The notes under the pieces: model-generated
Told to the model about the DNA's origin: nothing
The model's input: the letters and a program-made list of their open reading frames with translations, nothing else
Database searches by the model: none
Program-made: the position numbers and the translations under genes
Assembly (NCBI GenBank): GCA_964539665.1
Contig: CAZIKB010000003.1
Coordinates: forward strand, 60,062 to 124,061
Source: an uncultured Cytophagia bacterium
GTDB taxonomy: Bacteria; Zhuqueibacterota; Zhuqueibacteria; Oceanimicrobiales; Oceanimicrobiaceae
Reading direction: 5' to 3'
DNA: 64,000 bases
Part shown: positions 22,611-61,275 of the stretch, piece after piece
Layout of the letters: each line of letters opens with the position of its first letter
How positions within the stretch are numbered: the stretch's first letter is position 1

Positions 22611-22611
22611 T

Positions 22612-45854: not shown

Positions 45855-47513
45855 ATGAACAAAACAAATCATAGAGGAATTTTATTCTTTTTGAAGATAG
45901 GTATAATATCCGGTTTAATGTATGGCTTAATTTTAGGCTTGGTGAGATTATTAAGTCATGACGCTGTAAGAGCCTACTATTCAGCAAATTTTACAGATGT
46001 CCTGTTTTCATATACACAGGATTTTCTTAATCAAACCGTCATAATAACTTTGCTCGTATTTATTGTAATTGAAATGACTTTCTATTTTTTAAACAAATTA
46101 TTTGCAACCGCAGATAATAAGATAGTAAAATATTCAAGAATGATCGCGATTAATGGATTTTTCTTTTTATTAATTTTCTATTATTTAAATATTCAACACT
46201 GGTTTCCATCGATGTTGTCTAATAGCGCTTTATTGTACTACATAATTATTCTCGCGGGCAATGCTTTATTACTGTTATTATTCAATCGAATCAGAAACAA
46301 AATAGTTGTTCATGATTCTTTTAAATCCATTAAATTGCCAGTAATTACTGTTATCGTTTTATTATTGTTTAGCAATGTATTTAGTTATTTTCAAAAGAGT
46401 AAATTAAAAGCTGAAACACCGATAAATGTCATAATGATTGTGATTGATGCCCTGCGCGCCGGGCAGTTAGGTTGTTACGGATATGATCTGCCTACAACTC
46501 CGAACATCGATGCATTTGCTCAAGAAAGCCTTAGATTCACGAGCAGCTTTTCACCGAGCAACCATACTAAACCTTCCACAGCATCGCTTTTTACTTCGCT
46601 CTATCCTTCGCAACATAACGTTATTCTAGGAAATAGGTCAAATAATTCCGGGGAGTATTTCTCAGATGTTTTAGATGAATCATTCAAAACGATTGCAGAA
46701 TATTTGTATGAAGCAGATTATAACACGGCCGGGTTTCTAAACCAGGGTCAATTGCGTAAATATTTGGGATTTGCACAGGGATTTATCTATTATAATTCCC
46801 GGTTAGGAAGGGCGCCGCAAATTAATCGTGAATTTTTGCGTTGGCTGCCCATGAATAAACATAGAAAATTTTTTGCATACATACATTATTTGGATGTACA
46901 CGGCCCTTATGATCCGCCTGAGAAATATCGAAAAATATTTAATGTGAATGAGCTGACCAGCGAAATTCCGGAGCGTGCTAAAAATTGGCGAAAATTTAAA
47001 AAAGACTTTGAGAGCGGTGCTTTAGAATTTACGCCTGAGGACCTGGAAAATTTGAAAGCGCTTTACAATGCTGAACTTAAATCCGTTGATGATCAGCTTG
47101 GAATACTTTTTCAGGAATTGAAAAGGCAAGGAGTATATGAAAACAGTCTAATCATAATCACGGCTGACCACGGTGAGTCGTTTGTTGAACATGGCGAAAT
47201 AGATCATGGCTCCACTTTGTTCGATGAAGTTTTACGCGTACCTTTAATAATCCATTATCCTAACCAGGAAAAAACCGGCGTAGTAGATGCAAATGTGCAA
47301 ACTCTTGATTTACTGCCGACCATTTTAGATTATTTAAATATTACGCCTTCAAAAGACTTGATGGGACAAAGTATTTTAAAGTATTCAAATGGCAGCATTG
47401 AGCACGATGAATATCCTATTTTCTGTGAAAGAAATAATCTGGTCTCATTGATCTTTGGTAAAGATAAATATATTTTTGATAAAATAGCCAGACGGGGGAA
47501 CTCTATAACTTAG
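45855..47513 (+). CDS. Membrane-anchored sulfatase-family protein (third copy); the reading frame is interrupted at a GGGGG run and the ORF continues to 47691 in another frame
   Basis: It has a VIMIVIDALRAG motif, a nucleophile region NHTKPSTASLFTSLYP (Thr, no CxPxR) and an ITADHGESF motif. The annotated frame stops at 47513 after ...ARRGNSIT. The +2 frame from the G-run encodes GELYNLEIDPGERN...IEKLKSLGYIK*, ending at 47691. Confidence 0.55.
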   Translation: MNKTNHRGILFFLKIGIISGLMYGLILGLVRLLSHDAVRAYYSANFTDVLFSYTQDFLNQTVIITLLVFIVIEMTFYFLNKLFATADNKIVKYSRMIAINGFFFLLIFYYLNIQHWFPSMLSNSALLYYIIILAGNALLLLLFNRIRNKIVVHDSFKSIKLPVITVIVLLLFSNVFSYFQKSKLKAETPINVIMIVIDALRAGQLGCYGYDLPTTPNIDAFAQESLRFTSSFSPSNHTKPSTASLFTSLYPSQHNVILGNRSNNSGEYFSDVLDESFKTIAEYLYEADYNTAGFLNQGQLRKYLGFAQGFIYYNSRLGRAPQINREFLRWLPMNKHRKFFAYIHYLDVHGPYDPPEKYRKIFNVNELTSEIPERAKNWRKFKKDFESGALEFTPEDLENLKALYNAELKSVDDQLGILFQELKRQGVYENSLIIITADHGESFVEHGEIDHGSTLFDEVLRVPLIIHYPNQEKTGVVDANVQTLDLLPTILDYLNITPSKDLMGQSILKYSNGSIEHDEYPIFCERNNLVSLIFGKDKYIFDKIARRGNSIT

Positions 47514-47833
47514 AAATAGATCCGGGAGAGCGGAATAAAATTAATTCCCGGAATAGTGAATTAGAGCAGAAAATGAAAGCTATGGTTTTAGAATGGAGTG
47601 AGGCCATGAAACTCGTTAGTAAAAAGTCAGAAGGTACTAAATTAGATAAAGAAACCATCGAAAAACTTAAAAGTCTGGGATATATCAAATAAGACTGTTG
47701 AATTAAGGTCAAGTGCCATCTAATATTCTCAGTCGGGCGAATTCCATGGTTGGAAAAACGCATTCACTTCATTATTAGCCACGTGGCAGAGTGATTCCAA
47801 ATCAACGTACACTTCAGAATAAACCTAAATGAA

Positions 47834-48290: not shown

Positions 48291-48590
48291 ATGTCGGAAC
48301 AGAACCGAAAAAGAGTAATTGGTAAGGCAATTACTTATAGAGGACTTGGCACATTAGTTACTATATCAGTAATATATATTTTCACTGGAAAATTGGCGCT
48401 TTCATTTGGTGTCGGACTTGTTGAGGTCGTTGCTAAAATGCTTTTTTATTACCTGCATGAACGACTTTGGGAGAAAATATCATGGGGTAAAGATAAACAT
48501 CCTCTTGCTGGAATCCCTGTTAAAAAGGAGCTTGAACCTGAAGACAAAGTATTGCTTGAAGAGAGATTAAAAGAGCTTGGATATTTATAA
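48291..48590 (+). CDS. DUF2061-family small membrane protein with a C-terminal ...EERLKELGYL tail
   Basis: It has the RVIGKAITYRGLGT...YYLHERLW motif (DUF2061). Length is 99 aa, with an AGGAAA RBS. Confidence 0.6.
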   Translation: MSEQNRKRVIGKAITYRGLGTLVTISVIYIFTGKLALSFGVGLVEVVAKMLFYYLHERLWEKISWGKDKHPLAGIPVKKELEPEDKVLLEERLKELGYL

Positions 48591-48611: not shown

Positions 48612-50795
48612 ATGATGAATCGAAAATACTCGTTAATTACTTTACTCATTTTATTGGTATTCTTAATTATCGATGCACAGCCTGCTTTTGCATATATCGG
48701 CCCCGGCGCCGGTTTTGCATTTTTAACTTCATTTGCAATGCTATTTGCCAGTTTCTTTATGGCTTTTTTTACATTGCTAACCTGGCCTTTCCGGGTTTTT
48801 TTACGGTTTTTCAAAAGAAGAAAAGCTTTAGCCAGAGCTAAAACAGATCGGGTTGTGATTCTGGGCCTTGACGGTCTTGACCCAACTATCACAGAACGCA
48901 TGCTACAGGAAGGTAAATTACCAAATTTGAAAAAACTTAAAGAGCAAGGTTCTTACAAACATTTACAGACCACTTATCCAGCTCTCTCGCCAGTTGCCTG
49001 GTCAGCCTTTGCAACTGGAGTTAATCCTGGTCGACATAACATTTTTGATTTTCTTTCACGCAATCGATTCAACTATTTACCCGAATTATCCTCTTCAAAA
49101 GTTGGGTCTCCAAATCGAAAAATATCCCTGGGAAAATTCGAAATCCCGCTTGGCAAACCGATTGTTCGATTATTACGTCGCAGCAAAAGCTTCTGGACAA
49201 TATTGGGAGAGAACGGTATTTTCAGTCATGTACTTCGTGTACCAATCACTTTCCCACCTGAAAAATTTAACGGAGCGTTACTTTCAGCGATGTGTACTCC
49301 GGACCTCTGGGGAACGCAAGGCACTTTTTCCTACTTCACGACTGATACAACTAATAAAAAATTTAAAGAGGGAGGAGAGACTGCAGTTGTGAAATGGGTA
49401 GGCGATAGAATTGAGGGATTTATTAAAGGCCCTGAGAACTCCATTACTAAAAAGCATGAGTCGATGAAGCTCCCTTTTGAAGTAAAGATTTTGAGTGATG
49501 ACGAAATAGAACTGATAATAGAAAAAAAGAAATACAACCTAAAAAAGAAAAAATACACCGATTGGATTGAATTGAAATTTAAAGCCGGAATGGGGATCAA
49601 AGTACATGGTATTGCACGATTTTACCTGCTTGAAACCAATCCAGTTTTTAGATTGTATATGACGCCCATCAATATCGATCCGGAAAAGCCAGCGCTGCCA
49701 ATTTCTTACCCTTATTTCTATTCCGTTTATCTTTCTAAGTTATTCGGGAAATTCGCGACATTGGGTTTAGCGGAAGATACCTGGGCTTTGAACGAGGGCG
49801 TTCTTGATGAGGAAGCTTTTTTAGAGCAGGCATATCTAATTCATGAAGAACGTGAAAAACAATTTTTTCATACTTTAAGCAAAACCAGAAAAGGTTTGTG
49901 TTCAGTGGTATTTGATGCCAGTGATCGAATTCAGCACATGTTTTTCCGAACGCTTGAAGATGACCATCCTGCCAACCGAGGCAAAGAAACTGAAAAATAT
50001 AAAAATGTTATTGCCGATATGTATGAGCAAATGGATGACCTCGTTGGTAGAACCATGGCTAAAATAAATAAAGATGAGGTTTTTATTGTGCTCTCTGATC
50101 ATGGTTTTAAATCATTCAGACGCGGTATAAACCTGAATTCCTGGTTAAAAGCTAATGGTTATCTAAAGCTGAAAGACGGTAGGGAAGAGAGTGGGGAATT
50201 TTTTCAGGGTGTTGATTGGGAAAATACAAAAGCCTATGCATTCGGACTGACGGGTATTTACATCAATGTTAAAGGCCGGGAAAAGAACGGCATTGTCGCA
50301 CCAGGTGAAGAATTAAAAACACTCAAAGATGAGTTGATTGCTAAACTTTCCGGGATGTTAGATCCTGAAACCGGGGAAGTTGCCATTATCGAGATGTTTG
50401 ATAATAGTGAAATTTACAAGGGACCTTATACTAACAATGGACCCGACTTGATTAGTGGCTACAATAGCGGCTATCGAATTTCATGGAATGGCGCAACCGG
50501 GAATGTCAATGAGCAAATTTTTGAAGACAACGTTAAAGCCTGGAGCGGCGATCATTGTGTTGACCCGAGGCTTGTCCCCGGGGTGATTTTTAGCAACCAA
50601 AAAATTATGGCCGCTAAACCAGGTTTGATGGATATAGCGCCAACAGTTCTTGAATTATTTGGAATAACTAAACCAGGCTATATGGAAGGCCAGGATATCT
50701 TAAGTAGTGAACCAGAAGAGACAGCAAAAGATGAAGATATTCCCACCATAGTGCCAACAGTAAAAAAAACGGAGGTGGCTTCGGTCAATGAATAA
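48612..50795 (+). CDS. Membrane-anchored alkaline-phosphatase-superfamily protein (type I phosphodiesterase/nucleotide pyrophosphatase-like)
   Basis: It has two N-terminal hydrophobic segments followed by a KRRK cluster. Motifs include LGLDGLDP, a nucleophile region ALSPVAWSAFATGVNPGRHNIFDF and a later LSDHGF. Length is 727 aa. Confidence 0.6.
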   Translation: MMNRKYSLITLLILLVFLIIDAQPAFAYIGPGAGFAFLTSFAMLFASFFMAFFTLLTWPFRVFLRFFKRRKALARAKTDRVVILGLDGLDPTITERMLQEGKLPNLKKLKEQGSYKHLQTTYPALSPVAWSAFATGVNPGRHNIFDFLSRNRFNYLPELSSSKVGSPNRKISLGKFEIPLGKPIVRLLRRSKSFWTILGENGIFSHVLRVPITFPPEKFNGALLSAMCTPDLWGTQGTFSYFTTDTTNKKFKEGGETAVVKWVGDRIEGFIKGPENSITKKHESMKLPFEVKILSDDEIELIIEKKKYNLKKKKYTDWIELKFKAGMGIKVHGIARFYLLETNPVFRLYMTPINIDPEKPALPISYPYFYSVYLSKLFGKFATLGLAEDTWALNEGVLDEEAFLEQAYLIHEEREKQFFHTLSKTRKGLCSVVFDASDRIQHMFFRTLEDDHPANRGKETEKYKNVIADMYEQMDDLVGRTMAKINKDEVFIVLSDHGFKSFRRGINLNSWLKANGYLKLKDGREESGEFFQGVDWENTKAYAFGLTGIYINVKGREKNGIVAPGEELKTLKDELIAKLSGMLDPETGEVAIIEMFDNSEIYKGPYTNNGPDLISGYNSGYRISWNGATGNVNEQIFEDNVKAWSGDHCVDPRLVPGVIFSNQKIMAAKPGLMDIAPTVLELFGITKPGYMEGQDILSSEPEETAKDEDIPTIVPTVKKTEVASVNE

Positions 50796-52782
50796 GATTA
50801 AAGTTGTATTTGGTATAATAGCTATCCTATTTTTAGTGTCATTGATTAGCTTATCTGTTTTCTGGGGATGCAAAAAAAGCAATGCAAGCGCAATTGAAAA
50901 AAAAGTGATTGTTATTGGCTTTGATGGTATGGATCCAAGACTTTTGTCAAAATATATGAGTGAGGATCGACTTCCAAATTTTACTAAATTAGCTGAAACG
51001 GGCGATTATAAACCGCTTGGTACAAGTATTCCTCCACAGAGTCCGGTTGCCTGGTCAAATTTCATAACAGGTATGAATCCTGGCGGACATGGCATATTTG
51101 ATTTCCTTCATCGTGATCCAAATACAATGCTGCCACTCTCATCTACATCAAAAACGGAAGAGTCTGGCAAATCAATAAAGATCGGCAAATGGGTAATTCC
51201 ATTATCGGGAGGGAAAGTAGTGAATCTACGTAAAGGGCAGGCCTTCTGGGAGAAACTTGAAGATTCAGGCGTCCCAACGACAATTTTCAAAATACCATCA
51301 AATTTTCCACCGGTAAAAACAGACGGCAAAGCTTTGAGTGGTATGGGTACTCCTGATTTACAGGGTACATTTGGTACGTTTTCTTATTATACGGACGACC
51401 CTCCGCCAAATCGCGACGATATTTCCGGCGGTGTGGTTTATCCCGTCAAAATACTAAACAATGAAGTAGAAGCTCAATTAACAGGTCCAGCAAATACATT
51501 TTTAGAAGATGCCCCGAATGCTACTATTCCGTTTAAAGTGTGGAGTGATCCCGAAAATCCTGTAGTAAAAATATCAGTGCAGGATCACCAGATTTTGTTG
51601 AAAGAGAAAGAGTGGAGTGACTGGATTCAGGTGAAATTTGATATTATTCCTGTTCTGGAATCTGTAACTGGCATCTGTAGATTCTATCTGAAAGAAGTAC
51701 GACCGCATTTCAAATTATATGTTACTCCGATAAACATTGATCCTTCAAATCCAGCATTACCCATTTCAACACCTGATGATTATGCAAAAGAACTGTACGA
51801 CCACTGCGGATACTTTTATACGCAAGGCATGCCTGAGGATACAAAAGCGTTGTCCTGGAATGTATTTGATCATGATGATTTCCTGAAACAAGGCTTGAAT
51901 GTACTTGATGAACGATTACGTCTTTTCAATTATGTGTTTGACACGTTTGAGCAAGGTCTGCTGTTTTTTTATTTTTCAACTACCGATTTAAATGGACACA
52001 TGTATTATAATATGATTGATCCTGAACATCCGGGGTATGATGCAAAACAAGCGCAAAAATATGGTGACGTTATGAGTAAGTTATACGAAAGCGCTGATAA
52101 AGCAGTTGGCCACGTACTCGAGCGAATAGATGAAAACACTACACTTATAGTCATGTCAGATCATGGATTTGCACCGTTCAGACGCGCTGTGCATTTAAAT
52201 ACCTGGCTAAAAAATGAAGGATACATTACTTTAATTGATGAATCAAAGCAAGCCGAAAATGAATACTTTCAGAATGTCAATTGGAGCCGAACGCAAGCTT
52301 ATGGATTAGGTTTCAATGGGCTTTATGTAAATTTAAGAGGTCGGGAATCTTATGGTTTTGTTGCTCGACGGGAAAAGAAAGCCCTTTTGAATGAAATTTC
52401 CGAGAAGCTTTTAGCTCTACGCGATCCCAAAGATAATACAAGAATTATCGAACGGGTTTATCTGGCTGAAGAAATTTATTCTGAGCAATATTTAGAAAAT
52501 GCACCTGATCTCATTGTCGGTTACAACCGTGGATACAGAGCTTCATGGGAAACGACAATTGGTAACTTTCCACTGGAATGGATTTCGGACAATATGGATC
52601 CCTGGAGCGGTGATCATTGTATGGCAGCAGAGCTTGTACCTGGTGTAATTTTATCAAATAAAAAAATAGACGCTCAAAATCCTAAACTTTATGATATGGC
52701 CCCTACAATTCTTAACGAATTTAACGTTGAAAAGAGTGACGACATGGTGGGGCAAGTGATATTCAACAACATAGTAAATTAA
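50788..52782 (+). CDS. Alkaline-phosphatase-superfamily PDE/NPP-like protein (paralog 2)
   Basis: It has IGFDGMDP, PQSPVAWSNFITGMNPGGHGIFDF and MSDHGF motifs, with an N-terminal TM or lipobox-like FWGC. Length is 664 aa, and it overlaps the upstream gene by 8 nt. Confidence 0.6.
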   Translation: MNKIKVVFGIIAILFLVSLISLSVFWGCKKSNASAIEKKVIVIGFDGMDPRLLSKYMSEDRLPNFTKLAETGDYKPLGTSIPPQSPVAWSNFITGMNPGGHGIFDFLHRDPNTMLPLSSTSKTEESGKSIKIGKWVIPLSGGKVVNLRKGQAFWEKLEDSGVPTTIFKIPSNFPPVKTDGKALSGMGTPDLQGTFGTFSYYTDDPPPNRDDISGGVVYPVKILNNEVEAQLTGPANTFLEDAPNATIPFKVWSDPENPVVKISVQDHQILLKEKEWSDWIQVKFDIIPVLESVTGICRFYLKEVRPHFKLYVTPINIDPSNPALPISTPDDYAKELYDHCGYFYTQGMPEDTKALSWNVFDHDDFLKQGLNVLDERLRLFNYVFDTFEQGLLFFYFSTTDLNGHMYYNMIDPEHPGYDAKQAQKYGDVMSKLYESADKAVGHVLERIDENTTLIVMSDHGFAPFRRAVHLNTWLKNEGYITLIDESKQAENEYFQNVNWSRTQAYGLGFNGLYVNLRGRESYGFVARREKKALLNEISEKLLALRDPKDNTRIIERVYLAEEIYSEQYLENAPDLIVGYNRGYRASWETTIGNFPLEWISDNMDPWSGDHCMAAELVPGVILSNKKIDAQNPKLYDMAPTILNEFNVEKSDDMVGQVIFNNIVN

Positions 52783-52795
52783 AAAGGAGTTTTAT

Positions 52796-52987
52796 ATGTT
52801 AGGTCCCAAAATTAAATTAGAAAAAGAATTATATGATCGAATTAAAAAATTTTCTGAAATCGCTGGTTATTCTTCTGTTGAAGAATTTGTAACTCATGTG
52901 CTGGAAAAAGAACTGTCGACAATAGATGACTCTGAATCAGAAGAAGAAGTGAAAAAACGATTACAGGGATTGGGATATTTGTCTTAA
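52796..52987 (+). CDS. Small protein (63 aa) with a ribbon-helix-helix-like N-terminus, an acidic linker and a C-terminal ...KKRLQGLGYLS tail
   Basis: It has a strong AGGAG RBS. The N-terminal sequence KIKLEKELYDRIKKFSEIAGYSSVEEFVTHVLEKEL resembles CopG/Arc RHH proteins. Confidence 0.45.
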   Translation: MLGPKIKLEKELYDRIKKFSEIAGYSSVEEFVTHVLEKELSTIDDSESEEEVKKRLQGLGYLS

Positions 52988-53038: not shown

Positions 53039-53869
53039 ATGTTGAATATATTGAACTATTTTTTTAATATAATTTTTAATGTTATATTTTTTCCATTTAA
53101 AAATATGGATCCGATCTGGGGCATGTTAGTGGTTTCGTTTGTTACAGGGATTGTGATGTTATTTGTTTTTAAGGCAACTTCCGATCAGATTGGTATTAAA
53201 AAAGCAAAAAATTTGGTAAAGGGCCATTTCCTGGCCATTCGACTCTATCGGGACGATATCACACTTATGTTTGTTACCATGAAAAATATTATCATGAGTA
53301 ACCTGCTTTACATGAAAAAATCTTTTCGCCCCATGCTTTTTCTAATAATTCCTGTGGGTGTCATTTTAATTCACCTTGGCACCAGGTATGAATTCCGGCC
53401 ATTCAAAGTTGGGGAGACAATTATTGTTTCCATACGTCTGGATGACAAAATTCAGGATCTGAATCTCAACAATGTTGTTTTTGAACTTCCAGATGGTTTA
53501 ACCTCCGACATGCCGCCCGTTCGAATTCAGCAATTACGGGAAATTAACTGGCGTATCAAAGCTGAAAAGCCAGGCATCTATGATCTGATTTTTAAATACA
53601 ACAACAGTAATGTAACAAAGCGACTTGAAGTCAGAGATTCATTGATACCGCTTTCGAAAGAAATTGCCCAGAACAGTTTATCTGTGACTCTAATGAATCC
53701 CGGGGAATCGAGTTTGCCCGGATCTTCATTCGCTTCTCACATTGCAATCGGTTACCCCAAAAGAGATTTCAAATTCTTAGGATTCAGTTTCCATTGGTTA
53801 ATTGCTTTCTTTGTTTTTAGTCTAATTGCGGCATTTTCATTTAAAGGCGTGCTTGGCGTTGAAGTTTAG
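53039..53869 (+). CDS. Hypothetical membrane protein
   Basis: The 276 aa protein has 3-4 predicted TM segments at the N- and C-termini and a central soluble region. Confidence 0.35.
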   Translation: MLNILNYFFNIIFNVIFFPFKNMDPIWGMLVVSFVTGIVMLFVFKATSDQIGIKKAKNLVKGHFLAIRLYRDDITLMFVTMKNIIMSNLLYMKKSFRPMLFLIIPVGVILIHLGTRYEFRPFKVGETIIVSIRLDDKIQDLNLNNVVFELPDGLTSDMPPVRIQQLREINWRIKAEKPGIYDLIFKYNNSNVTKRLEVRDSLIPLSKEIAQNSLSVTLMNPGESSLPGSSFASHIAIGYPKRDFKFLGFSFHWLIAFFVFSLIAAFSFKGVLGVEV

Positions 53870-53938: not shown

Positions 53939-54775
53939 ATGAGTTATAAATTTTTATCTACTAAAACAAGTCAGGAACATGATTTAGACCAGTGGCAAAA
54001 TCGTAGCCTCGAAGGTGAAATAAAAAGTTTTGAAGGCCGTACATTAGTTCGTATTTTTAATAAATATTTAAACGGAAAAGAAGCGAAAATCCTTGAAGGA
54101 GGTTGCGGATTTGGTGCTTGGTGTGAGTGGTTCCAAAAACAGGGTTATCAAATATTAGGTATTGAATACGATAATAATATAGTAAAAAGAGCCAAAAAAT
54201 ATAAGCCAGATGTAGCCGTTGAATTAGGCGATATCACCGAAATAAAGTACCCGTCCGATAGCTTTGACGCTTATGTATCATTGGGAGTGATTGAACATTT
54301 TGAACATGGTCCAGAGTCTGCCCTGAGAGAAGCCCATCGAATTCTTAAACCAGATGGCATAGCCTTTGTAACTACGCCTTATTTAACAGTAATCCGAAGG
54401 TTTGTTGCTCATCCGGTTCGCAGCTTGTATTTTTTAATTCGAGAGTTTCGTGGAAAATCAAATTATTTTTGGGAATATCGGTTTACAAAAAATGAATTAC
54501 GTTCTTTTCTTGAGAATACTGGCTTTGAAATTATACATGCGGATATCGACGATTATGAGCATAGGATTAAGAATCGCCACATAGGTCTGTGGGCGGATTG
54601 GTTTTTTTTAAGAAGAAAAAATGGTGCAATCTGGGAGTTAAATGGTTTAGGAAAATTTGTGCTCAGAGTTGTCAATCTTTTTCCTGATTCCTGGTACTGC
54701 TCGGGTTTGCATCTGGTTGCAAGGGCAAAAAAGAACGATATCACTGAAAATAGTGAAATTACTAAATCCAAATAA
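53939..54775 (+). CDS. Class I SAM-dependent methyltransferase
   Basis: It has [11 protein letters not shown] (motif I), ILGIEYD and LKPDGIAFV motifs. Length is 278 aa. Confidence 0.7.
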
Positions 54776-54798: not shown

Positions 54799-57435
54799 AT
54801 GGAATTAATCGCACCTCACGGTGGCAAACTTGTTGATCAGGTTTTACGTGGCGAAGAACGTGAAGCAGCTTTGAACAAAGCTAAGCATCTAAAAAAAATT
54901 GCAATCAACGCAACAGCAATTTCTGATGTAGAACTCATTGCAGTTGGTGCATTCAGCCCATTAACGGGATTTATGAAACAGGCTGATTATGAAAATGTAG
55001 TTACGAATATACGTTTAGCAAATGGCGTGGTCTGGTCGATACCAATAACTTTGTCAGTTACCAGTGAAATTGCTGATGAAGTTAAAATTGACGAAGAAAT
55101 TGTATTAACCAATGATGCCGGATTGCAATTAGCATTATTAAAAGTTGAGGAAAAGTTTACTTACGATAAAACCCGGGAAGCGGAATTTGTATATAAAACA
55201 ACCGAAGAAGCCCATCCTGGCGTTGCCCGGCTTTACAAGCAGGATGATGTGTTATTAGGTGGTGAGATTAGGCTAATCAATCGGGTGCCGGATCAACCAT
55301 TTCCGGATTTTCGACACGATCCTGTTCAGAGTCGGCGTATGTTTGCCAGTCGCGGTTGGAAAAAAATTGTAGGATTTCAAACTCGCAATCCAATACATCG
55401 TGCGCATGAATACATACAGAAATGTGCATTGGAAATTGTCGATGGTTTATTTTTACATCCATTAGTTGGGGAGACTAAAAAGGATGATATTCCCGCGGAT
55501 ATTCGCATGCAAAGTTATGAGAGCCTGCTGCGAGATTATTATCCGCCAAACCGTACACTTTTAGGGGTATATCCGGCCGCCATGCGCTATGCCGGTCCAA
55601 GAGAGGCTATTTTTCATGCGATTGCGCGAAAGAATTATGGCTGCAGCCATTTTATAGTCGGTCGAGACCATGCCGGGGTTGGTAATTATTATGGAACGTA
55701 TGATGCTCAAAAAATATTCGATGATTTCAAAAAGGAAGAAATAGATATCACACCTTTATTTTTTGATCATACATTTTATTGCAAAAAATGCGGTGCTATT
55801 GTTTCTGACAAAACCTGTCCGCATGATCAATCTGAGCGTTTGATATTAAGTGGCACTCAGGTTCGTGAAATGCTCACTCGCGGGGAAGCGCCACCACCAG
55901 AATTAACCCGCCCGGAAGTGGCGAGTATACTGATCGAAGGTTATCGCAAAGAAGGCAAATCAGTTCAACCAGAAAAAAAACCGGAAGCCAAAAGAGCACC
56001 AGCTAAATCCGAACCAAAGGCAGCGGTTGCAAGGGCGTCTAAAAATGGCAAGCGGAAAGTATTTGTCATCGGCCTTGATTGTGCCACACCCGAATTGATT
56101 TTTGACCAGTACAAATCGGAGCTTCCAAACTTTCGGAAATTAATGGAAAGCGGTCTTTACGGAGAATTAGAAAGCAGCATTCCGCCAATTACCGTTCCAG
56201 CCTGGTCGTCCATGATGAGCAGTAAAGATCCGGGGCAGTTGGGCTTTTACGACTTTCGTAATCGTGCAGATTACTCCTATGAAAGCATGTATATTGCCTC
56301 ATCCAGGTCAGTAAAAACGGATCGGGTCTGGGATATTCTCTCTCGTTCAGGAAAACAGGTATCGGTTGTGGGAGTGCCTCAAACCTATCCTATCCAGCCC
56401 GTTAAAGGAAACATGATTTCTTGCTTTCTGACTCCTTCTACTGAAAGCCAGTACACCTATCCTGAAGAACTTAAATCTGAAATCCAGGAGTTGGTGGGAG
56501 ACTACATGATTGATGTGCCTAATTTTAGAACCGAGAACAAGGATTTGCTTTTGCGGCAAATTTATGAAATGACCGAAAAGCGTTTTCGGCTTGTTCGCTA
56601 TCTAATGCGGAAAAAACCGTGGGACTTTTTTATGTTTGTCGAAATGGGTACAGATCGCATTCATCACGGATTCTGGAAGTATATGGATACCGGCCATAAA
56701 AAATATGAACCCGGTAATCCTTATGAAAACTCAATAAAGGAATATTATAAATATCTGGATCGGGAAATCGGCGAGGTACTTGATAACCTTGACGACGATA
56801 CATCCGTTTTGGTGGTTTCAGACCATGGCGCCAAAAAAATGGATGGCGGTATATGCATTAATGAATGGCTCATTGAAAATGGCTATCTTATTTTAAAAGA
56901 GAAACCGGCTTCACTTATGCCACTGGAGAAAGCAGAAATAGACTGGCCCAAAACGAAAGCATGGGGCGCTGGCGGATATTTTGGCCGAATTTTTCTTAAT
57001 GTCCGCGGCCGCGAACCTGAAGGCGCGGTTGCACCTGAAGAGTATGAAACCATTCGGAATGAATTGATTCATAAGCTGGAAAATATAAAGGACGAAAAAG
57101 GCCAGCCATTAACTACCAGAGTTATAAAGCCAAATGAGGTTTATAAGGAAGTAAACAATATTCCTCCGGATTTAATGGTCTATTTTGGTGATTTGAATTG
57201 GCGGTCGGTTGGCAGTGTCGGATTAAATCGAATACACACTTTTGATAAAGAGCTGGGACCTGATGATGCTAACCATTCTCAGCACGGTATTTTTGTCATG
57301 CATGATCCACAAAATCCTGCAAATGGCAAGAGAATTCACGGCATGCAATTGGTTGATGTTGCGCCAACTATTTTAGATTTATTTGGTGACGAAATTCCAA
57401 ATGATATGATCGGTAAAGTTATCAGGAACAAATAA
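54799..57435 (+). CDS. sat: Fusion protein: N-terminal sulfate adenylyltransferase (ATP sulfurylase) and C-terminal alkaline-phosphatase-superfamily PDE/NPP-like domain
   Basis: Residues 1-390 carry the [13 protein letters not shown] and [15 protein letters not shown]-sulfurylase signatures. A Lys/Pro/Ala-rich linker follows. Residues from about 420 have [17 protein letters not shown] and VSDHGAKK motifs homologous to the ORFs at 48612, 50788 and 58183. Total length is 878 aa. Confidence 0.75.
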
Positions 57436-57451
57436 GGCGTTAGAGGAAACA

Positions 57452-57492
57452 CGCTGAGGATATTTGCCACACACTTCCAGGGTGTGTGGCAA
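57452..57492 (+). terminator. Perfect 13-bp stem hairpin (ATTTGCCACACAC / GTGTGTGGCAAAT, 7-nt loop) followed by an AT-rich TTTTAAATT tract; intrinsic terminator or attenuator between the sat fusion and cysC
   Basis: The inverted repeat was read directly at 57452-57484. It starts 17 nt after the stop at 57435. Confidence 0.5.
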
Positions 57493-57559
57493 ATCCAATT
57501 TTAAATTAAAATCAATTAATTAGTTGTAATGATATAAATTTTATGGAGGTTTCAATTTT

Positions 57560-58183
57560 ATGAAGACATCTAAAAAAGCATGTACAATTTGGTTCACGGG
57601 TTTACCTTCCTCTGGAAAATCTACTTTGGCGGAGATGCTGGAAAAGGAGTTAAAAAACCGCGGAGAAAGGGTCGAAATTTTAGATGGCGATGTAGTCCGT
57701 ACGAATTTAAGCAAAGGCTTGACCTTTAGTAAGGAAGATCGGGACATCAATATCCGGAGAATAGGATTTGTTTGTCATTTGTTGACAAGAAATGGTGTGT
57801 TCGCAATTTCTGCAGCAATATCTCCTTATAGAAATATACGAGATGAAAACCGTGCACTCATAGGCAACTTTGTCGAGGTTTTTGTTGATTGTCCACTGGA
57901 TGAATGTATTAAAAGAGATGTAAAAGGTCTTTATAAAAAAGCATTGGCCGGCGAAATAAAGGAATTTACCGGCGTTTCTGATCCTTATGAAGAACCTCTC
58001 AAACCTGAAATTGTGATTGACGCCCACGGAGAAGAACCCAAAGATAGCCTTCAAAAAATACTGGCGAGATTAGTAGAATTAGGTTACTTATCCAATAACG
58101 GTCTTGATACATCTGACAAAGCATATTCTGATGAAGAAGAAGAGGTAGTGAGAAAGCGGCTGAGTGATCTGGGCTATATTTAA
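57560..58183 (+). CDS. cysC: Adenylylsulfate (APS) kinase with a roughly 50-aa C-terminal extension carrying two LGY[IL] tail motifs
   Basis: It has the P-loop [14 protein letters not shown] and the APS-kinase core. The extension reads ...[40 protein letters not shown]. Confidence 0.85.
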
Positions 58184-59529
58184 TGTTAAATATTTTTAAG
58201 AAAAATAAGGGATCAAAAGTATTTGTTCTGTCTATCGACGGTGTTCCCTTTTCATTTATGCAGGAAAACATAGAAAAGGGTCATTTTCCTAACTTCAAAC
58301 GTTTTTTGAATATGGGTGATTTTAAAAGGATGAATTCAGTGCAACCGGTGATATCATCGGTTGCCTGGTCCTCTTTTATGACAGGCAAGAATCCGGCTAA
58401 GCATAATATTTATGGATTTGTGGATCAAATGCCGGGTTCAAATAATGTATATATTCCTACTTCGCTCAACATGACCAGTAAAACCATTTGGGATATCATG
58501 AGTGAGGCTGGGAAAAAAGTGTTTGTGATGAATGTTCCTGTAACCTATCCACCACGCGCGGTAAATGGAATTATGATTGGCTGTTTCCTTTGCACTCAAA
58601 TTGAGAAAATAGCTTCCCCGCCTGCTATTTCTGCTGAATTAAAAAATATGGGCTATAAGATTGATGCAGACGCCTGGATCGCCCGTGAAAATTTAGACAA
58701 ATTCCTGGAGGAAGTAAATACTACCCTGGAAAAGCGAACCGAGGCTATGTTTCATTTTTTGGCAAAGGAAGATTGGGATTATTTTCACACCCACATCATG
58801 GAAACAGACCGGATAAATCACTTTTTATGGGAGCACATGGAACTCGATGAGCCGAAATATGCTAAAGCTTTTTTCCAATTTTATAAAAGGTTGGATGATA
58901 TTTTAGGTGAAGTTGAACAAAAAATCGGCGAAGACGCGGAATTTATAGTTCTGTCTGATCACGGTTTTTGTACTATTAAGAAAGAAATCTATCTCAATAA
59001 TTATTTGGAAGAAGCCGGTATATTGAAATTTAATAACTCTCAGCCGGAAAGTATCGCGGACATGCATGAAGATTCCACGGCCTACAGCTTGATTCCAGGC
59101 AGGGTATTTGTGAATCTAAATGGGCGCGAGCCGAACGGTTCGATATCGCCGGGGAATTATGAAAAGACCCGGGAAAAACTCACTGAGACGCTTCTTAATT
59201 TAAAGGAAAAAGACACCGGCGAATTTATTATCAAGGAAGTTATCAGGCGCGAAAATATCTACGAAGGTCAAAATATTGGCTCCGCAGCGGACTTAATTGC
59301 TGTTCCACATGATGGTTATGACTTGAAAGGGAACGTGAATAAAGAAGTGTTTGGTGAAAAGGGGGCGCTGGTCGGAATGCATACATTCGAAGATTCACTT
59401 TTATTTGTTCGAAATAAATCTTTGTTAAAACAGAATAATCAATTTTGGATCGGAGATTTGGCTCCAACTATTTTAAATATGATGAATATACCCATCCCAA
59501 ACGATATGGATGGAGTGGCATTAGTTTGA
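58183..59529 (+). CDS. Alkaline-phosphatase-superfamily PDE/NPP-like protein (soluble paralog)
   Basis: Its ATG overlaps the cysC stop by 1 nt. It has LSIDGVP, PVISSVAWSSFMTGKNPAKHNIYGF and LSDHGF motifs. Length is 448 aa. Confidence 0.6.
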   Translation: MLNIFKKNKGSKVFVLSIDGVPFSFMQENIEKGHFPNFKRFLNMGDFKRMNSVQPVISSVAWSSFMTGKNPAKHNIYGFVDQMPGSNNVYIPTSLNMTSKTIWDIMSEAGKKVFVMNVPVTYPPRAVNGIMIGCFLCTQIEKIASPPAISAELKNMGYKIDADAWIARENLDKFLEEVNTTLEKRTEAMFHFLAKEDWDYFHTHIMETDRINHFLWEHMELDEPKYAKAFFQFYKRLDDILGEVEQKIGEDAEFIVLSDHGFCTIKKEIYLNNYLEEAGILKFNNSQPESIADMHEDSTAYSLIPGRVFVNLNGREPNGSISPGNYEKTREKLTETLLNLKEKDTGEFIIKEVIRRENIYEGQNIGSAADLIAVPHDGYDLKGNVNKEVFGEKGALVGMHTFEDSLLFVRNKSLLKQNNQFWIGDLAPTILNMMNIPIPNDMDGVALV

Positions 59530-59536
59530 GTAATCT

Positions 59537-60682
59537 TTGCAGGAAAAAATGACCCAGAAATCACAAATCAATGTTCTTCAGGTTGTAGAGGGACTCAATT
59601 TAGGCGGGGCTGAAATTAAGCTTTTGGAGCTCATCGCCAACATGGATCGCAGCAGATTTAGAACGGTTGTGTGTAGTCTTGGAATGGGTGAAAGAATTAA
59701 AGAAAAAGTAACAGAATTAGATGTTAAATTTGTTAGTCTCGCGAGGAAAAGACGATTTGATCCAATGTTGATATGGAAAGTGGCCAAATTGATTCGTCAG
59801 GAAAATATTGATGTCGTGATGACTACGCTTTTTTATGCTGATGTTGTTGGCGCTTTTGCCCGGCTCTTCAGCCCGACTAAAGCTGTATTCTCCTGGGAAA
59901 CCATATCTGCTCCGGAATGGCTGCTAAAACACAGGCTTTTTGCTTATCGCTTTGCCATGCGATATTGCGATAATATCATTTCAGTTTCACAAGCAACGGC
60001 AAATTGGCTGGTCGAAAAACGCGGTGTCTCAAATGATAAAATAATAGTCATACCGTACGGCGTTAACCTTGATTTGTATCGACAGGGAAAAAATCATGAG
60101 TTGAAACAGAGTTTAGGAATTCATCCTGATACATTTGTAGCTGGGGTAGTGGCGCGACTCCATCCTCAGAAAGGGCACAAATATTTAATTGAGGCGGCTA
60201 AAACAATTGTCCAAAAACATGCAAATATTAAATTTGTATTTGCTGGCGATGGAGAATTAAGAAGTGAATTAGAAAGCCTGGTGCAATCCGCGAATCTTCA
60301 GGATTATTTTCTGTTCTTAGGCTTCAGAAATGATGTGAAAGAACTATTAGGGACGTTTGATGCTTTTGTGCTTCCCTCTTTGTACGAGGGGCTGCCAAAT
60401 GTTATTTTGGAAGCAATGGCAACCGGCCTTCCTGTTGTTGCGACTGCAGTTGATGGCACAGTCGAATTAATTGAAGATGGTGAAACCGGGTTTCTTGTAC
60501 CGCCGAAAGATCCACAGGCTTTAGTGGAAAAAATCTATCAACTAATTCAAGACAAAGACCGAATCTGTAGATTTGGCAAACAAGGGCGTAAACGAGTTGA
60601 GTTAAAATATTCTCTACAGATGCAGGTGAGCAATTTCCAGAATCTATATGAAAAATATGTTTTTAATGGAATTAAAAAATAA
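59537..60682 (+). CDS. GT4 glycosyltransferase
   Basis: It has a GGAE N-motif and the C-domain sequence LPSLYEGLPNVILEAMATGLPVVAT with E-x7-E. Length is 381 aa. Confidence 0.75.
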   Translation: MQEKMTQKSQINVLQVVEGLNLGGAEIKLLELIANMDRSRFRTVVCSLGMGERIKEKVTELDVKFVSLARKRRFDPMLIWKVAKLIRQENIDVVMTTLFYADVVGAFARLFSPTKAVFSWETISAPEWLLKHRLFAYRFAMRYCDNIISVSQATANWLVEKRGVSNDKIIVIPYGVNLDLYRQGKNHELKQSLGIHPDTFVAGVVARLHPQKGHKYLIEAAKTIVQKHANIKFVFAGDGELRSELESLVQSANLQDYFLFLGFRNDVKELLGTFDAFVLPSLYEGLPNVILEAMATGLPVVATAVDGTVELIEDGETGFLVPPKDPQALVEKIYQLIQDKDRICRFGKQGRKRVELKYSLQMQVSNFQNLYEKYVFNGIKK

Positions 60683-60752: not shown

Positions 60753-61275
60753 ATAGAAATTTATCAAATTAATGCTAACCTGAAAGATATCACAAGCCAC
60801 GCGATTGTTTTATTTGGAAGAAAGGCTATCGCAATCGAGACGATTGTGTGGCTACAACCGAGCGCTTCCTGAATGCCTGCATGAAACTGACCTTTTTACA
60901 AAAGGTTAGTTTCTTTTTTAACTAAACACACACAAACCTTTTTCAAGAAGGTCTGCGTTTCCTTATAGTAATATGTTTAACAATGAAACAATTGTACAAA
61001 ATAAATACATGGAAAATCAGAAAAATTAATTCATTTGATAAAATCATATTTTAAAATTTAGATAATACTTTATAAATTAAGGAGTTGAAAATAGCACAAA
61101 ATAATGCCACTCTGGCATAAATATTGCCATTTTTCTTTGGAATAAAAATAAATTCAATATAAGGTAGTTAGTTCCTGTTTTTTAAAAATTGAATTAAGTT
61201 AGTGCTTTAATTTCCGATACTTAACATATCACAAGCATTTAAAAAGTGTTGCTATTTTGGGTTGGATAAGATACT

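Follow-up and report, generated by a model that had tools for sequence, protein, structure and literature searches.

ATP sulfurylase and APS kinase recurrently paired with phosphodiesterase-like proteins: a candidate sulfate-transfer module in an exopolysaccharide locus

The region described here is best explained as an activated-sulfate module within a large locus for exopolysaccharide biosynthesis. It encodes intact enzymes for both activation steps, an ATP sulfurylase (sat) yielding APS and an APS kinase (cysC) yielding PAPS. Each is joined to members of an uncharacterised, NPP-like branch of the alkaline-phosphatase (AP) superfamily, sat by fusion and cysC by translational coupling, an association that recurs across phyla. 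Our best reading, to which we give a probability of about 0.4, is that this NPP-like family comprises PAPS- or APS-linked transferases of a new class, with glycan intermediates as the targets of sulfation. The pairing of sat and cysC with phosphodiesterase-like proteins in many bacterial phyla may signal a novel type of sulfate-transferring enzyme, for which the family is a candidate. All genes of this region discussed below lie on the + strand.

The 878-aa ORF at 54799-57435 joins a complete ATP sulfurylase to an NPP-like AP-superfamily domain via a disordered linker. The sat part (residues 1-390; 54799-55968) contains a PUA_2 domain (residues 4-162, Pfam E 1e-56) and the catalytic ATP-sulfurylase domain (residues 170-380, Pfam E 1e-97), keeps the GRDHAG motif and scores 457 bits against TIGR00339 (cutoff 323); the fusion reaches 584 bits against the NCBIfam sulfate adenylyltransferase model NF003166 (cutoff 387). 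The linker (residues about 391-420; 55969-56058) is rich in Lys, Pro and Ala, and pLDDT falls below 50 at residues 388-416 of the full-length model. The C-terminal domain, APfus (residues 421-878; 56059-57435), carries the active-site residues of the superfamily, matches PF01663 Phosphodiest over residues 421-810 (Pfam E 3e-48; 165 bits, cutoff 23) and was modelled by AF2 with a pLDDT of 95. The full-length AF2 model (pTM 0.61), with its disordered linker, shows no defined interface between the sat and AP parts, which counts against the transferase reading. The Pfam and NCBIfam matches bear out the preliminary description, which had read this ORF as an ATP sulfurylase fused to a type-I phosphodiesterase/NPP-like domain. 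An assembly artefact as the source of the fusion was rejected, since the same architecture occurs in more than 120 protein clusters at 60-78% identity. A SAM-dependent methyltransferase gene (Pfam; 53939-54775) lies directly upstream.

The fusion and cysC are separated by a 124-nt gap, in which we read a near-perfect hairpin on the + strand (GCCACACAC...GTGTGTGGC; 57463-57494) that is not among the elements listed by a scan for terminator-like structures. The 207-aa APS kinase (57560-58183; PF01583, Pfam E 1e-61; NCBIfam NF002059, 268 bits, cutoff 244) has a C-terminal extension of roughly 30 aa. The sequence TAATG (58181-58185) contains both the cysC stop codon and, overlapping it, the start of the next gene, in keeping with the translational coupling proposed earlier for this pair. 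The coupled gene encodes AP448 (58183-59529; 448 aa; PF01663, Pfam E 1.5e-43), a stand-alone cytoplasmic paralog of APfus with a Ser nucleophile. The order cysC then AP448 is kept in other loci, including L081-L084, L066, L068 and L073. The last gene of the sub-operon encodes a GT4 glycosyltransferase (59537-60682), and a strong terminator-like hairpin follows at 60883-60913.

Two further paralogs lie upstream, AP727 (48612-50795; 727 aa; PF01663, Pfam E 4.5e-28) and AP664 (50788-52782; 664 aa; PF01663, Pfam E 9e-41), whose genes overlap by 8 nt. The three stand-alone proteins named in the preliminary description thus all pass PF01663, and they share 31-32% identity with APfus. AP727 and AP664 share a large insertion, well over 100 residues long, and have N-terminal hydrophobic segments, as expected from the membrane anchoring that had been ascribed to two of the paralogs; no such segments were found in the fusion or AP448. 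In AP727, two hydrophobic segments are followed by nine Lys/Arg residues, so that the positive-inside rule predicts a cytoplasmic catalytic domain; the membrane side of AP664, with one segment, is ambiguous. The neighbouring genes encode a small DUF2061 membrane protein (Pfam; 48291-48590), also present between sat or APfus and cysC in two other loci (L012, L081), a 63-aa conserved protein (52796-52987) and TM276, a 276-aa membrane protein (53039-53869). The 63-aa protein has a pattern that looks like ribbon-helix-helix (RHH), with Pfam RHH_1 matches that were sub-threshold and confined to homologs, and its gene lies between AP664-like and TM276-like genes in six other loci. TM276 has no Pfam match, its homologs are named DUF106 family by JGI, and it is conserved beside AP727 and AP664 homologs.

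The metal ligands and nucleophile of AP/NPP enzymes are kept in all four proteins of the window (the whole 64-kb stretch analysed), corresponding in the fusion to D427, T465, D619, H623, D675, H676 and H826; the nucleophile is Thr in the fusion and Ser in the paralogs. The nucleophile and metal motifs noted earlier, [ST]-x-[VP]-A-W-S and SDHG, are real and invariant, and the catalytic residues are intact and invariant in the fusions (60) and diverse family members (54) compared. The two-metal site is complete, and both fold and ligands agree with those of NPP. However, TFPNH of NPP is replaced by TVPAW, Asn111 of NPP by an invariant Phe (F486 in the fusion), and conservation of the nucleotide-contacting motif is lost. 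Homologs of APfus are named "predicted AlkP superfamily phosphohydrolase/phosphomutase" by JGI, and our literature search found no function linked to the family.

Three Thr-type PF00884 proteins that were absent from the preliminary description also lie in the locus, and they are equally good candidates for sulfuryl transfer as the PF01663-like proteins. The "sulfatase-like" protein at 37249-38628 (Pfam) is cytoplasmic, with the motif GWTLPTH and a Thr where sulfatases have the Cys/Ser of C-x-P-x-R. The other two (Pfam; 43768-45645 and 45855-47692) are multi-TM proteins with the Thr nucleophile motifs LTWPSLT and HTKPSTA, respectively. The ORF starting at 45855 stops at 47513, while the sulfatase-type C-terminus goes on in another frame (47483-47692), which likely reflects a frameshift at or near a run of five G (47494-47498).

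An unexpected extra of the analysis was a shared C-terminal tail, ...EEExxΦxxRLxxLGY[ILV], found in many phyla on cysC, "AP-big" paralogs, PF00884-like proteins, DUF2061 and the small RHH-like protein. In the window it ends the cysC extension, the DUF2061 and 63-aa proteins and the PF00884-like proteins at 37249 and 43768, as well as the out-of-frame C-terminus of the 45855 gene. Its presence on both cysC and AP-superfamily proteins points to one system tied to PAPS synthesis.

The sat~AP architecture is not unique to this genome, a possibility that had been raised: its >120 clusters, with glycan genes as neighbours, agree with the expected recurrence of such fusions beside polysaccharide loci. 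In 45 of 80 species-representative loci with APfus orthologs, at least one of sat and cysC lies no more than 10 kb away, and 36 loci have both, whereas the chance expectation for such an association would be well under 1%. About half (35/80) have neither gene within 10 kb, and the same holds for 19 of the 30 loci whose two flanks each reach 8 kb or more, which speaks against the transferase reading. The 45 associated loci span at least eight phyla and at least four gene orders (sat~AP fused; sat|AP|cysC; AP-cysC-sat in Ktedonobacteraceae; a sat/cysC fusion followed by AP in Verrucomicrobiota), and this variety argues for selection and not for shared ancestry of one operon. In Actinomycetota the operon order is sat-AP-cysC-PHP. 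This PHP protein matches 3',5'-nucleoside bisphosphate phosphatase best (E 6e-53, with a score that does not reach the curated cutoff), and the PAP-phosphatase-like assignment leaves AP as the sole unassigned enzyme of a complete sulfation cassette. In a Syntrophobacterales genome two AP types flank cysC with no other related-looking gene. The surrounding genes belong to glycan biosynthesis (GT2, GT4, epimerases, UDP-Glc dehydrogenase, aminotransferases, Wzx, Wzy). Taken across gene orders, phyla and, in some cases, PHP partners, the neighbourhood of sat and cysC gives strong support for a functional link between the family and activated sulfate.

Canonical sulfotransferases were sought in the window and in related loci. 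A Pfam scan of every ORF of at least 150 aa and several smaller ones found no sulfotransferase family in the 64-kb window, and a regular expression for the PAPS-binding loop had no match there, as the preliminary description had stated for P-loop sulfotransferases. According to a 2024 review, polysaccharide sulfotransferases have the PAPS-binding fold as their hallmark. In related loci, sulfotransferases were not among the families matched by at least three of the 150 nearest neighbour ORFs, and none lay within 10 kb in L081-L083 or L085-L088. Exceptions were a Sulfotransfer_3/1 gene 7 kb away in L084 and one possible P-loop candidate in L050, and divergent sulfotransferases could hide among unannotated ORFs.

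If the family consists of transferases, its members would consume activated sulfate on the cytoplasmic face, as soluble or membrane-tethered enzymes, and would pass the sulfuryl group of PAPS, or of APS for the sat-fused domain, to sugars or lipid-linked glycan intermediates. The route would likely be ping-pong, via a covalent sulfo-Thr/Ser enzyme, with separate paralogs serving separate acceptor positions. The leftover PAP would be cleared by the PHP-type phosphatase in Actinomycetota, and in the present lineage may be cleared by AP448, which occupies the same slot after cysC. Paralog expansion in glycan loci, together with membrane tethers, is typical of tailoring transferases and not of housekeeping hydrolases. 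Either the PF01663-like or the Thr-type PF00884-like proteins could carry out the sulfuryl transfer. The earlier interpretation of the domains as APS/PAPS-handling enzymes therefore stands in part: the link to activated sulfate is strong and the sulfotransferase role is a candidate, facing a rival that needs no new chemistry.

That main rival, which we consider rather unlikely, holds that these are accessory hydrolases of the PAPS pathway. The sat-fused domain would be a pyrophosphatase pulling the unfavourable ATP-sulfurylase reaction and AP448 a PAP phosphatase, or one of these roles would be filled, with the true sulfotransferase encoded elsewhere or being another protein of the locus. Hydrolysis of PPi or PAP is ordinary phosphoryl transfer for a two-metal Ser/Thr site, and AP/NPP promiscuity studies show that such sites perform phosphoryl transfer far better than sulfuryl transfer; moreover, we know of no AP-superfamily sulfotransferase dependent on PAPS or APS. 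The domain is fused to sat, which releases PPi as its co-product, and not to cysC, as this rival predicts; by Rosetta-stone logic this points to APS or PPi instead of PAPS. Some eukaryotic PAPS synthases combine sat with a pyrophosphatase. AP448 fills the slot of the Actinomycetota PHP gene, the two being largely mutually exclusive; no CysQ, PHP or NrnA-type gene was recognised in the window by the Pfam scan; minimal loci hold the fusion and cysC only, beside sulfur-trafficking genes without glycan genes; and the L084 sulfotransferase also fits. However, the fused-type AP and PHP co-occur in Actinomycetota, so that AP is not the PAP phosphatase there, and APfus orthologs also occur in glycan loci that have neither sat nor cysC within 10 kb but do have GT2, GHMP kinase, PF00884-like and "AP-big" genes beside them. 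Hydrolysis of PPi or PAP hardly explains why a locus should hold as many as four paralogs, some of them membrane-anchored and bearing the large insertion, and replacement of the phosphoryl-contacting Asn by Phe is odd for a phosphate-optimised enzyme.

It is improbable that the proteins are instead phosphoryl-group enzymes of glycan or sugar-phosphate metabolism unrelated to sulfur (phosphoglycerol, phosphoethanolamine or phosphosugar transferases, sugar-phosphate phosphatases, phosphomutases), with sat and cysC merely co-located and the same polymer sulfated by something else. The JGI name agrees with such a role, as do the HddA-like GHMP kinase and GmhA-like SIS isomerase beside orthologs in Ktedonobacteraceae and Verrucomicrobiota, since that heptose-phosphate pathway requires a phosphatase. 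A periplasmic location, as in LtaS and EptA, is possible for AP664 and the multi-TM PF00884-like proteins, and it would be incompatible with use of PAPS, which is not available there. Co-location nevertheless leaves unexplained the sat fusion, the cysC coupling, the glycan-free AP-cysC-AP cassette and the tail that joins cysC to other AP-superfamily proteins, and GHMP kinase neighbours (15/80) are less frequent than sat/cysC (45/80). Still more improbable, by a wide measure, is a phosphodiesterase with a regulatory, futile-cycle or adenylyl-transfer role: by attack at the phosphorus of APS or PAPS it would set sulfate free, and either limit the activated-sulfate pool or pass AMP to a sugar phosphate to give an ADP-sugar. 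Nucleotide anhydrides are cleaved by NPP-type enzymes through a nucleotidyl-Thr intermediate, and mammalian NPPs are reported to hydrolyse PAPS; the NPP-like fold and ligands, and heptose-pathway neighbours lacking an obvious nucleotidyltransferase in some loci, would suit this activity. Yet fusing an APS producer to an APS destroyer would be wasteful, the motif by which NPP contacts the nucleotide is not conserved and, fold aside, the context gives no support.

Among the closest known systems are the NPPs (Xanthomonas NPP, ENPP1-7; PF01663), from which the family differs by TVPAW and Phe in place of TFPNH and Asn111. PhnA (phosphonoacetate hydrolase) keeps the Asn (GICGN) and works in phosphonate catabolism, a context unrelated to sat/cysC loci; its model TIGR02335 gave 15-30 bits against a cutoff of 408 (NCBIfam). 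LtaS, EptA/MCR-1 and OpgB are AP-superfamily group transferases with a Thr nucleophile, but they belong to the PF00884 branch and move phospho-alcohol groups from phospholipid donors by periplasmic domains, whereas the APfus family falls in the PF01663 branch, is for the most part cytoplasmic and has a link to PAPS synthesis. Formylglycine (S1) sulfatases have a C/S-x-P-x-R motif that is absent here, Thr being the nucleophile in PF01663-like and PF00884-like proteins. Bifunctional PAPS synthases (sat-cysC in Aquifex and Thiobacillus; sat-pyrophosphatase in eukaryotes) likewise join sat to a handler of one of its products, and the sat/cysC fusions upstream of AP in verrucomicrobial relatives resemble them; the partner here, in contrast, is an NPP-like domain and neither cysC nor a family-I/II pyrophosphatase. 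Canonical PAPS-dependent sulfotransferases use the P-loop-like PAPS-binding fold (PF00685, PF03567, PF13469), absent from the window and not recurrent in related loci. The Cobetia and Vibrio capsule loci (cysDN/cysC/cysQ) nonetheless share the same logic, in which PAPS synthesis, a PAP phosphatase and a sulfate-transferring enzyme are combined in one glycan locus.

All genes in the window lie on the forward strand and jointly form one very large glycan biosynthesis locus. In Pfam terms, the locus encodes GT2 and GT4 glycosyltransferases, sugar-nucleotide epimerases/dehydratases, an asparagine-synthase-like amidotransferase, two Wzx-type flippases, one Wzy-type polymerase, PMT_2-type membrane glycosyltransferases, GH39 and GHL15 hydrolases, a FemAB-like acyltransferase, CarA, CarB, and two carbamoyltransferases. 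The carbamoylation genes (carA, carB, the two carbamoyltransferase genes, and a gene for an SxtJ-like small protein) are located at 21552-27620, 33947-35746, and 27622-28059. Because the locus has its own carbamoyl-phosphate synthase and two carbamoyltransferases, its polymer is suggested to be carbamoylated as well.

The 878-aa ORF at 54799-57435 (+) consists of PUA_2 and ATP-sulfurylase domains, a Lys/Pro/Ala-rich linker, and a PF01663 domain (E 3e-48). The preliminary description had read it as a complete ATP sulfurylase (sat) joined to a type-I phosphodiesterase/NPP-like domain of the alkaline-phosphatase (AP) superfamily, and the Pfam and NCBIfam matches agree. The sat part is complete, with 584 bits against NF003166 (cutoff 387) and 457 bits against TIGR00339 (cutoff 323), and its catalytic motifs, QTRNPxHRxH and GRDHAG, are present in the translation and invariant across 60 fusions. 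The APS kinase gene cysC (57560-58183) follows after a 124-nt gap. Its product exceeds the NCBIfam cutoffs (NF002059, 268 vs 244; TIGR00455, 222 vs 139) and carries the P-loop; residues 5-178 match the Synechocystis APS kinase 5cb6 (E 1e-61), and residues 179-207 form an extra tail. Both sat and cysC are intact in sequence. The gap between the fusion and cysC contains a near-perfect hairpin (57463-57494) with a 9-bp stem, GCCACACAC...GTGTGTGGC, which is absent from the terminator-like list of a promoter/terminator scan; over the window, that scan stayed at background level.

Three stand-alone paralogs of the fused domain, already located at 48612, 50788, and 58183 in the preliminary description, all lie above the PF01663 cutoff of 23 bits: AP727 (48612-50795) scores 99, AP664 (50788-52782) 141, and AP448 (58183-59529) 150, compared with 165 for the fusion. 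The four are 31-32% identical to each other. The TAA stop of cysC overlaps the ATG of the 448-aa AP448, which upholds the proposed translational coupling of this paralog to APS kinase. AP727 and AP664 overlap each other by 8 nt and have in common a large insertion of well over 100 residues. The membrane anchoring claimed for two paralogs corresponds to N-terminal hydrophobic segments in AP727 and AP664; the fusion and AP448 lack both a signal and a TM segment. In AP727, nine Lys/Arg residues come after a hydrophobic hairpin, which would put its catalytic domain at the membrane on the cytoplasmic side, following the positive-inside rule, and the predicted membrane side of the AP664 catalytic domain is ambiguous.

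Residues D427, T465, D619, H623, D675, H676, and H826 of the fused domain are invariant in 60 fusions and 54 diverse relatives. The two-metal ligands are conserved in all four paralogs, with Thr as the nucleophile in the fusion and Ser in the others, and the Ser/Thr nucleophile motif described before recurs in all four as an invariant x-[TS]-x-[PV]-A-W-S. In profile alignments, T465 aligns with T90 of Xac NPP and with the PhnA Thr mutated in PDB entry 3t02. The motif TVPAW in the AP family replaces the NPP motif TFPNH and, at the N111-equivalent position 21 residues downstream, the invariant F486 stands opposite N111 of Xac NPP in the HMM alignment (GFYDF here vs GIVHN). In Xac NPP, N111 contacts the transferred phosphoryl group. 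The fused domain thus has neither the phosphoryl-contacting Asn nor the T-F/Y-P-N-H motif by which NPPs are recognized.

The AlphaFold model of the AP domain (71 sequences, pLDDT 95, pTM 0.93) shows the alpha/beta core of the AP superfamily with a fold closest to NPPs, and solved structures match it at 12-16% identity. The nearest are ENPP6 (score 30.4), Xanthomonas NPP (30.2), ENPP4 (29.9), and ENPP7 (29.7), followed by phosphonoacetate hydrolase (26.5), the PafA/PhoK phosphatases (about 25), formylglycine sulfatases (about 23), and LtaS and EptA/MCR-1 (17-20). The remote-homology search that the preliminary description had proposed for this domain leads to the ENPPs and Xanthomonas NPP. A single-sequence phmmer search of the AP domain against the PDB gave no match, and a profile was required for alignment. 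In the full-length AF2 model of the fusion, the sat catalytic domain is poor; the model gives no interdomain geometry and is silent on channeling. No NCBIfam model claims the AP family, and JGI labels its homologs "predicted AlkP superfamily phosphohydrolase/phosphomutase". Since the metal ligands and the nucleophile are kept and TFPNH and the Asn are replaced, the fused domain is predicted to be a catalytically competent, uncharacterised, atypical NPP-like enzyme. It belongs to the AP superfamily and to Pfam PF01663, minus one defining NPP active-site feature. PF00884 also matches the fusion, but marginally, with 26.7 bits and beneath the PF01663 match. We rejected an assignment of the AP proteins to the formylglycine (S1) sulfatases, whose C/S-x-P-x-R motif is absent; the fused domain has T-V-P-A-W.

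The PUA_2 + ATP-sulfurylase + Phosphodiest architecture recurs: more than 120 protein clusters, at 60-78% identity and in part labelled as Anaerolineae, have it, which rules out a frameshift or assembly artefact as the source of the fusion. Fusions of sat and AP do recur near polysaccharide loci, a point that the preliminary description had left to be checked: by precomputed Pfam annotation, some fusion contigs are of EPS type, with GTs, methyltransferases, a flippase, Wzy, and a TauE-family transporter, and others hold the fusion and cysC alone. In one locus (L085), a TauE/SafE-family anion transporter gene (12713-13456) is located between the sat-AP fusion and cysC; the encoded transporter may import sulfate for the module.

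Scanning one genome per species yielded 569 relatives, and the best 80, which are 51-65% identical to the fused domain, were used for locus analysis. These best 80 come from Chloroflexota (Anaerolineae, Ktedonobacteraceae, Roseiflexaceae, and Dehalococcoidia), Verrucomicrobiota, Actinomycetota (Gaiellales and others), Acidobacteriota, Calditrichaceae, Thermodesulfobacteriota, Dadabacteria, Eisenbacteria, Hydrogenedentota, Nitrospiraceae, and Armatimonadota. Among their loci, sat is present in 40/80, cysC in 41/80, either in 45/80, and both in 36/80; four are true in-frame fusions, and sat lies directly upstream of the AP gene in about 19 more. Where at least 8 kb is available on each flank, 11 of 30 loci have sat or cysC. 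Chance adjacency of an AP ortholog with sat/cysC would be well under 1%. In many lineages, AP-family proteins are tightly tied to PAPS synthesis at the genetic level; they occur in glycan loci and have multiplied there.

The gene order of the window type, sat-AP (fused or separate)-cysC-AP448 with or without AP727-AP664-small ORF-TM276, is also found in Eisenbacteria and unclassified MAGs. Actinomycetota have sat-AP-cysC-PHP, Ktedonobacteraceae have Ino1 / AP-cysC-sat-GHMP kinase-SIS, and Verrucomicrobiota have sat/cysC fusion-AP-GHMP kinase-(AP)-acyltransferase-GT. Further loci show AP-PF00884-like-AP727-AP664-TM276, or AP-PF00884-like, with neither sat nor cysC within reach. Homologs of AP448 form an AP-cysC-AP sandwich in a Syntrophobacterales chromosome, without glycan genes or a nearby sat, and likewise in Zixibacteria and one further metagenome contig. 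In Ktedonobacteraceae (L003-L016) and Verrucomicrobiota (L024-L041), genes for an HddA-like GHMP kinase and a GmhA-like SIS isomerase accompany the AP ortholog, joined in Ktedonobacteraceae by one for inositol-3-phosphate synthase. Owing to these linkages, the loci of both groups hint at a product with heptose or inositol, sulfated or phosphorylated.

In sat-AP-cysC operons of Actinomycetota, a PHP-domain gene directly follows cysC (L063 12069-12953; also L070, L075, L077, L078, and L079). The best family of its product is the 3',5'-nucleoside bisphosphate (PAP) phosphatase, at E 6e-53 and under the curated cutoff. Such PHP-type neighbours were found only in Actinomycetota loci and occupy the slot that AP448 has in other phyla. 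With the PHP protein alongside, a role of the fused-type AP as PAP phosphatase in Actinomycetota was ruled out.

Six window proteins end in a shared tail, composed of an acidic run, then [KR]-L-x-x-L-G-Y-[ILV], and then at most one further residue. The copies, all on the + strand, are located at 38530-38625, 45547-45642, 47594-47689, 48492-48587, 52889-52984, and 58085-58180. The carriers are CysC, a DUF2061 protein (48291-48590), a 63-aa protein (52796-52987), and three PF00884-like proteins, the third of which has its tail in another frame, past a probable frameshift at or near the G5 run 47494-47498. These six are the tail-bearing ones among 214 window reading frames of at least 60 codons between stops, and they lie between 37 and 58 kb. 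In 86 related loci (L001-L086), the tail ends 75 of 12,851 ORF frames, compared with about 3 expected from a rough composition estimate. Nearly all 75 are CysC (about 30 loci in many phyla), larger-type AP paralogs, PF00884-like proteins, some AP448-like proteins, DUF2061 proteins, or the small protein encoded between AP664-like and TM276-like genes. Among close homologs, it was found in 0/120 fusions, 0/120 AP448 homologs, and 0/74 homologs of the membrane protein TM276. APS kinases natively end in a helix that looks like this tail, such as ...KLVDLKYIE in Synechocystis and ...KLEHEGYL in Thiobacillus, and the window CysC has a native helix copy followed by a second, appended copy. We read the shared tail as evidence that the tail-bearing proteins belong to one system with CysC, in which the tail is perhaps a docking helix. 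By crude topology, the tail of the multi-TM PF00884-like proteins would be periplasmic, whereas CysC is cytoplasmic. A low-powered search of the tail profile against 1.84 billion representatives gave 29 matches; those with multiple copies are PG_binding_1-type repeats (V..LQ.RL..LGY), probably unrelated to the tail.

The unannotated 63-aa protein, encoded on the + strand, is conserved, with homologs at L029 8375-8614, L035 17943-18167, L039 17336-17542, L066 11531-11722, L068 5819-6025, and L073 about 17470-17665. It shows a ribbon-helix-helix-like pattern with sub-threshold Pfam RHH_1 matches (E 0.01-0.05) in homologs from other loci only, the sole notable match of the window copy being DUF7557 (E 0.004), and it may be a regulator of the module. 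TM276, a 276-aa membrane protein (53039-53869), has no Pfam match, and JGI assigns homologs of it to the DUF106 family. Of its 74 homologs, the one in candidate division KSB1 is closest (67% identity), and in six loci from several phyla the homologs adjoin the AP727/AP664 pair without exception. Judged by the best named matches, the source organism of the window appears to be akin to candidate division KSB1. The DUF2061 small membrane protein recurs in cassettes of distant lineages (L012 3426-3713; L081 9099-9350), between sat and the AP gene in an Anaerolineae MAG and between the AP gene and cysC in Syntrophobacterales.

The three PF00884-like proteins, all encoded on the + strand, have the nucleophile motifs T-L-P-T-H (37249-38628, cytoplasmic), T-W-P-S-L (43768-45645, about 5 TM), and T-K-P-S-T (45855-47692, with a stop at 47513, about 5 TM). 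Thr thus occupies the formylglycine-forming Cys/Ser position, and the GKxxH sulfate-binding signature is, by eye, apparently missing. With a Thr nucleophile, no C/S-x-P-x-R motif, and no apparent GKxxH, they were rejected as sulfatases. Their homologs adjoin the AP ortholog in Gaiellales and other loci, and the three are alternative candidates for a transferase. In the third gene, which stops at 47513, a sulfatase-type C-terminus (ELYNLEIDPGE...) and the tail continue in another frame to 47692; the probable frameshift is either a homopolymer sequencing error or real.

The window was searched for canonical sulfotransferases by a Pfam scan of all ORFs of at least 150 aa and several smaller ones, and in addition by a PSB-loop regular expression. 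Neither gave a match: no PF00685, PF03567, PF13469, or Stf0-type protein was found in the 64 kb, the AP paralogs included, and the PSB-loop pattern was likewise empty, as the preliminary description had noted for the P-loop type. In the related loci, the pattern matched one of 996 ORFs, a candidate in L050. Among the 150 neighbour ORFs closest to AP in sat/cysC-bearing loci, no sulfotransferase family has at least three member matches in Pfam; the dominant families are epimerases/dehydratases, GHMP kinase, inositol-phosphate synthase, PHP, SIS, UDP-Glc dehydrogenase, GTs, aminotransferases, and methyltransferases. One of eight Pfam-annotated neighbourhoods has a Sulfotransfer_3/1 gene (PF13469/PF00685; L084 18056-19126, -), the only canonical one seen near any cassette. 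It is separated from the AP-cysC-AP genes by 7 kb, is encoded on the other strand, and follows a gene for an unrelated secreted protein. Across the window and the related loci scanned, classical sulfotransferases are therefore no regular part of the cassette, though one may still be present, for instance beyond the 64 kb.

In our best model, to which we assign a probability of about 0.4, the AP-family proteins consume activated sulfate as transferases. The Thr/Ser nucleophile would attack the sulfur of PAPS, or of APS in the sat-fused domain, PAP or AMP would depart from the metal site, and at the cytoplasmic face the sulfo-enzyme would then donate its sulfuryl group to a hydroxyl on a sugar or a lipid-linked repeat unit. 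The paralogs would represent different acceptor specificities, with the large insertion as an acceptor-binding cap, and removal of PAP would fall to the PHP protein or to an analogue, for which AP448 is a candidate. Both the missing Asn and the TVPAW motif would fit a changed electrophile, without proving it. In the main rival, which we regard as less likely, the fused domain would act as a pyrophosphatase and AP448 as a PAP phosphatase. That reading is conservative in its chemistry and accounts for the fusion to sat as well as the equivalence of the AP448 and PHP slots, but leaves unexplained the orthologs in glycan loci without sat or cysC, the co-occurrence with PHP, and the expansion of membrane-anchored paralogs. 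The AP proteins have no Pfam/NCBIfam match to PAP phosphatase (CysQ/PF00459, PHP Cv1693 type, NrnA) or inorganic pyrophosphatase families; either activity is possible by analogy. As PPi or PAP hydrolases, they would be non-orthologous replacements of pyrophosphatase or CysQ, dedicated to sulfation. It is improbable that they are phospho-group transferases, phosphatases, or mutases of glycan/heptose-phosphate metabolism, and very improbable that they act as an APS/PAPS phosphodiesterase or adenylyl transferase.

Beyond the transferase model, we tentatively consider that this widespread NPP-like branch of the AP superfamily, possibly with the Thr-type PF00884-like proteins, constitutes an unrecognised sulfotransferase class, assembled with sat and cysC via the ...RLxxLGY[ILV] tail. 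Sulfate would pass from APS/PAPS onto the Thr/Ser nucleophile and then to glycan or lipid-linked intermediates. Members that appear to be periplasmic may receive an activated sulfate carrier that is passed through the membrane. Such a class would account for sulfated glycans in many bacteria without canonical sulfotransferases in their glycan loci.

No paper in the literature collection searched ties the AP family to sulfation or any function. Haloferax volcanii Agl7 (HVO_2046) may conceivably belong to the AP superfamily. Papers on this protein confirm its need in the sulfation of dolichol-phosphate-linked hexose and name no protein family. What is new about this PAPS-supply module of a glycan locus is the partner family fused to it, and the breadth and tightness of the AP-sat/cysC association would surprise a specialist. 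An AP-fold sulfotransferase would be categorically new enzymology, a prospect that we hold to be possible rather than probable. If the family does transfer sulfate, Chloroflexota, Verrucomicrobiota, Actinomycetota, Acidobacteriota, KSB1/Calditrichota-like, and other mostly uncultured phyla have a hidden capacity for sulfation, and new biocatalysts for sulfated polysaccharide production would become available. Whether the AP proteins are sulfotransferases or PPi/PAP hydrolases, loci for sulfated glycans can readily be marked by the sat-AP-cysC(-AP/PHP) cassette.

To our knowledge, a single PAPS-binding fold serves every known case of PAPS-dependent sulfation, from heparan sulfate to Nod factors. 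In a 2024 review, this fold is named as the hallmark of polysaccharide sulfotransferases, and genome mining for sulfated glycans depends on it. The fused domain belongs to none of the known sulfotransferase, sulfatase, PAP-phosphatase, or pyrophosphatase families. Canonical sulfotransferases have a P-loop-like PAPS-binding fold with a 5'-PSB loop and a 3'-PB motif, whereas the AP proteins have an AP-type fold; if they are sulfotransferases, they therefore stand outside the known families and would represent a second, structurally unrelated solution with covalent catalysis.
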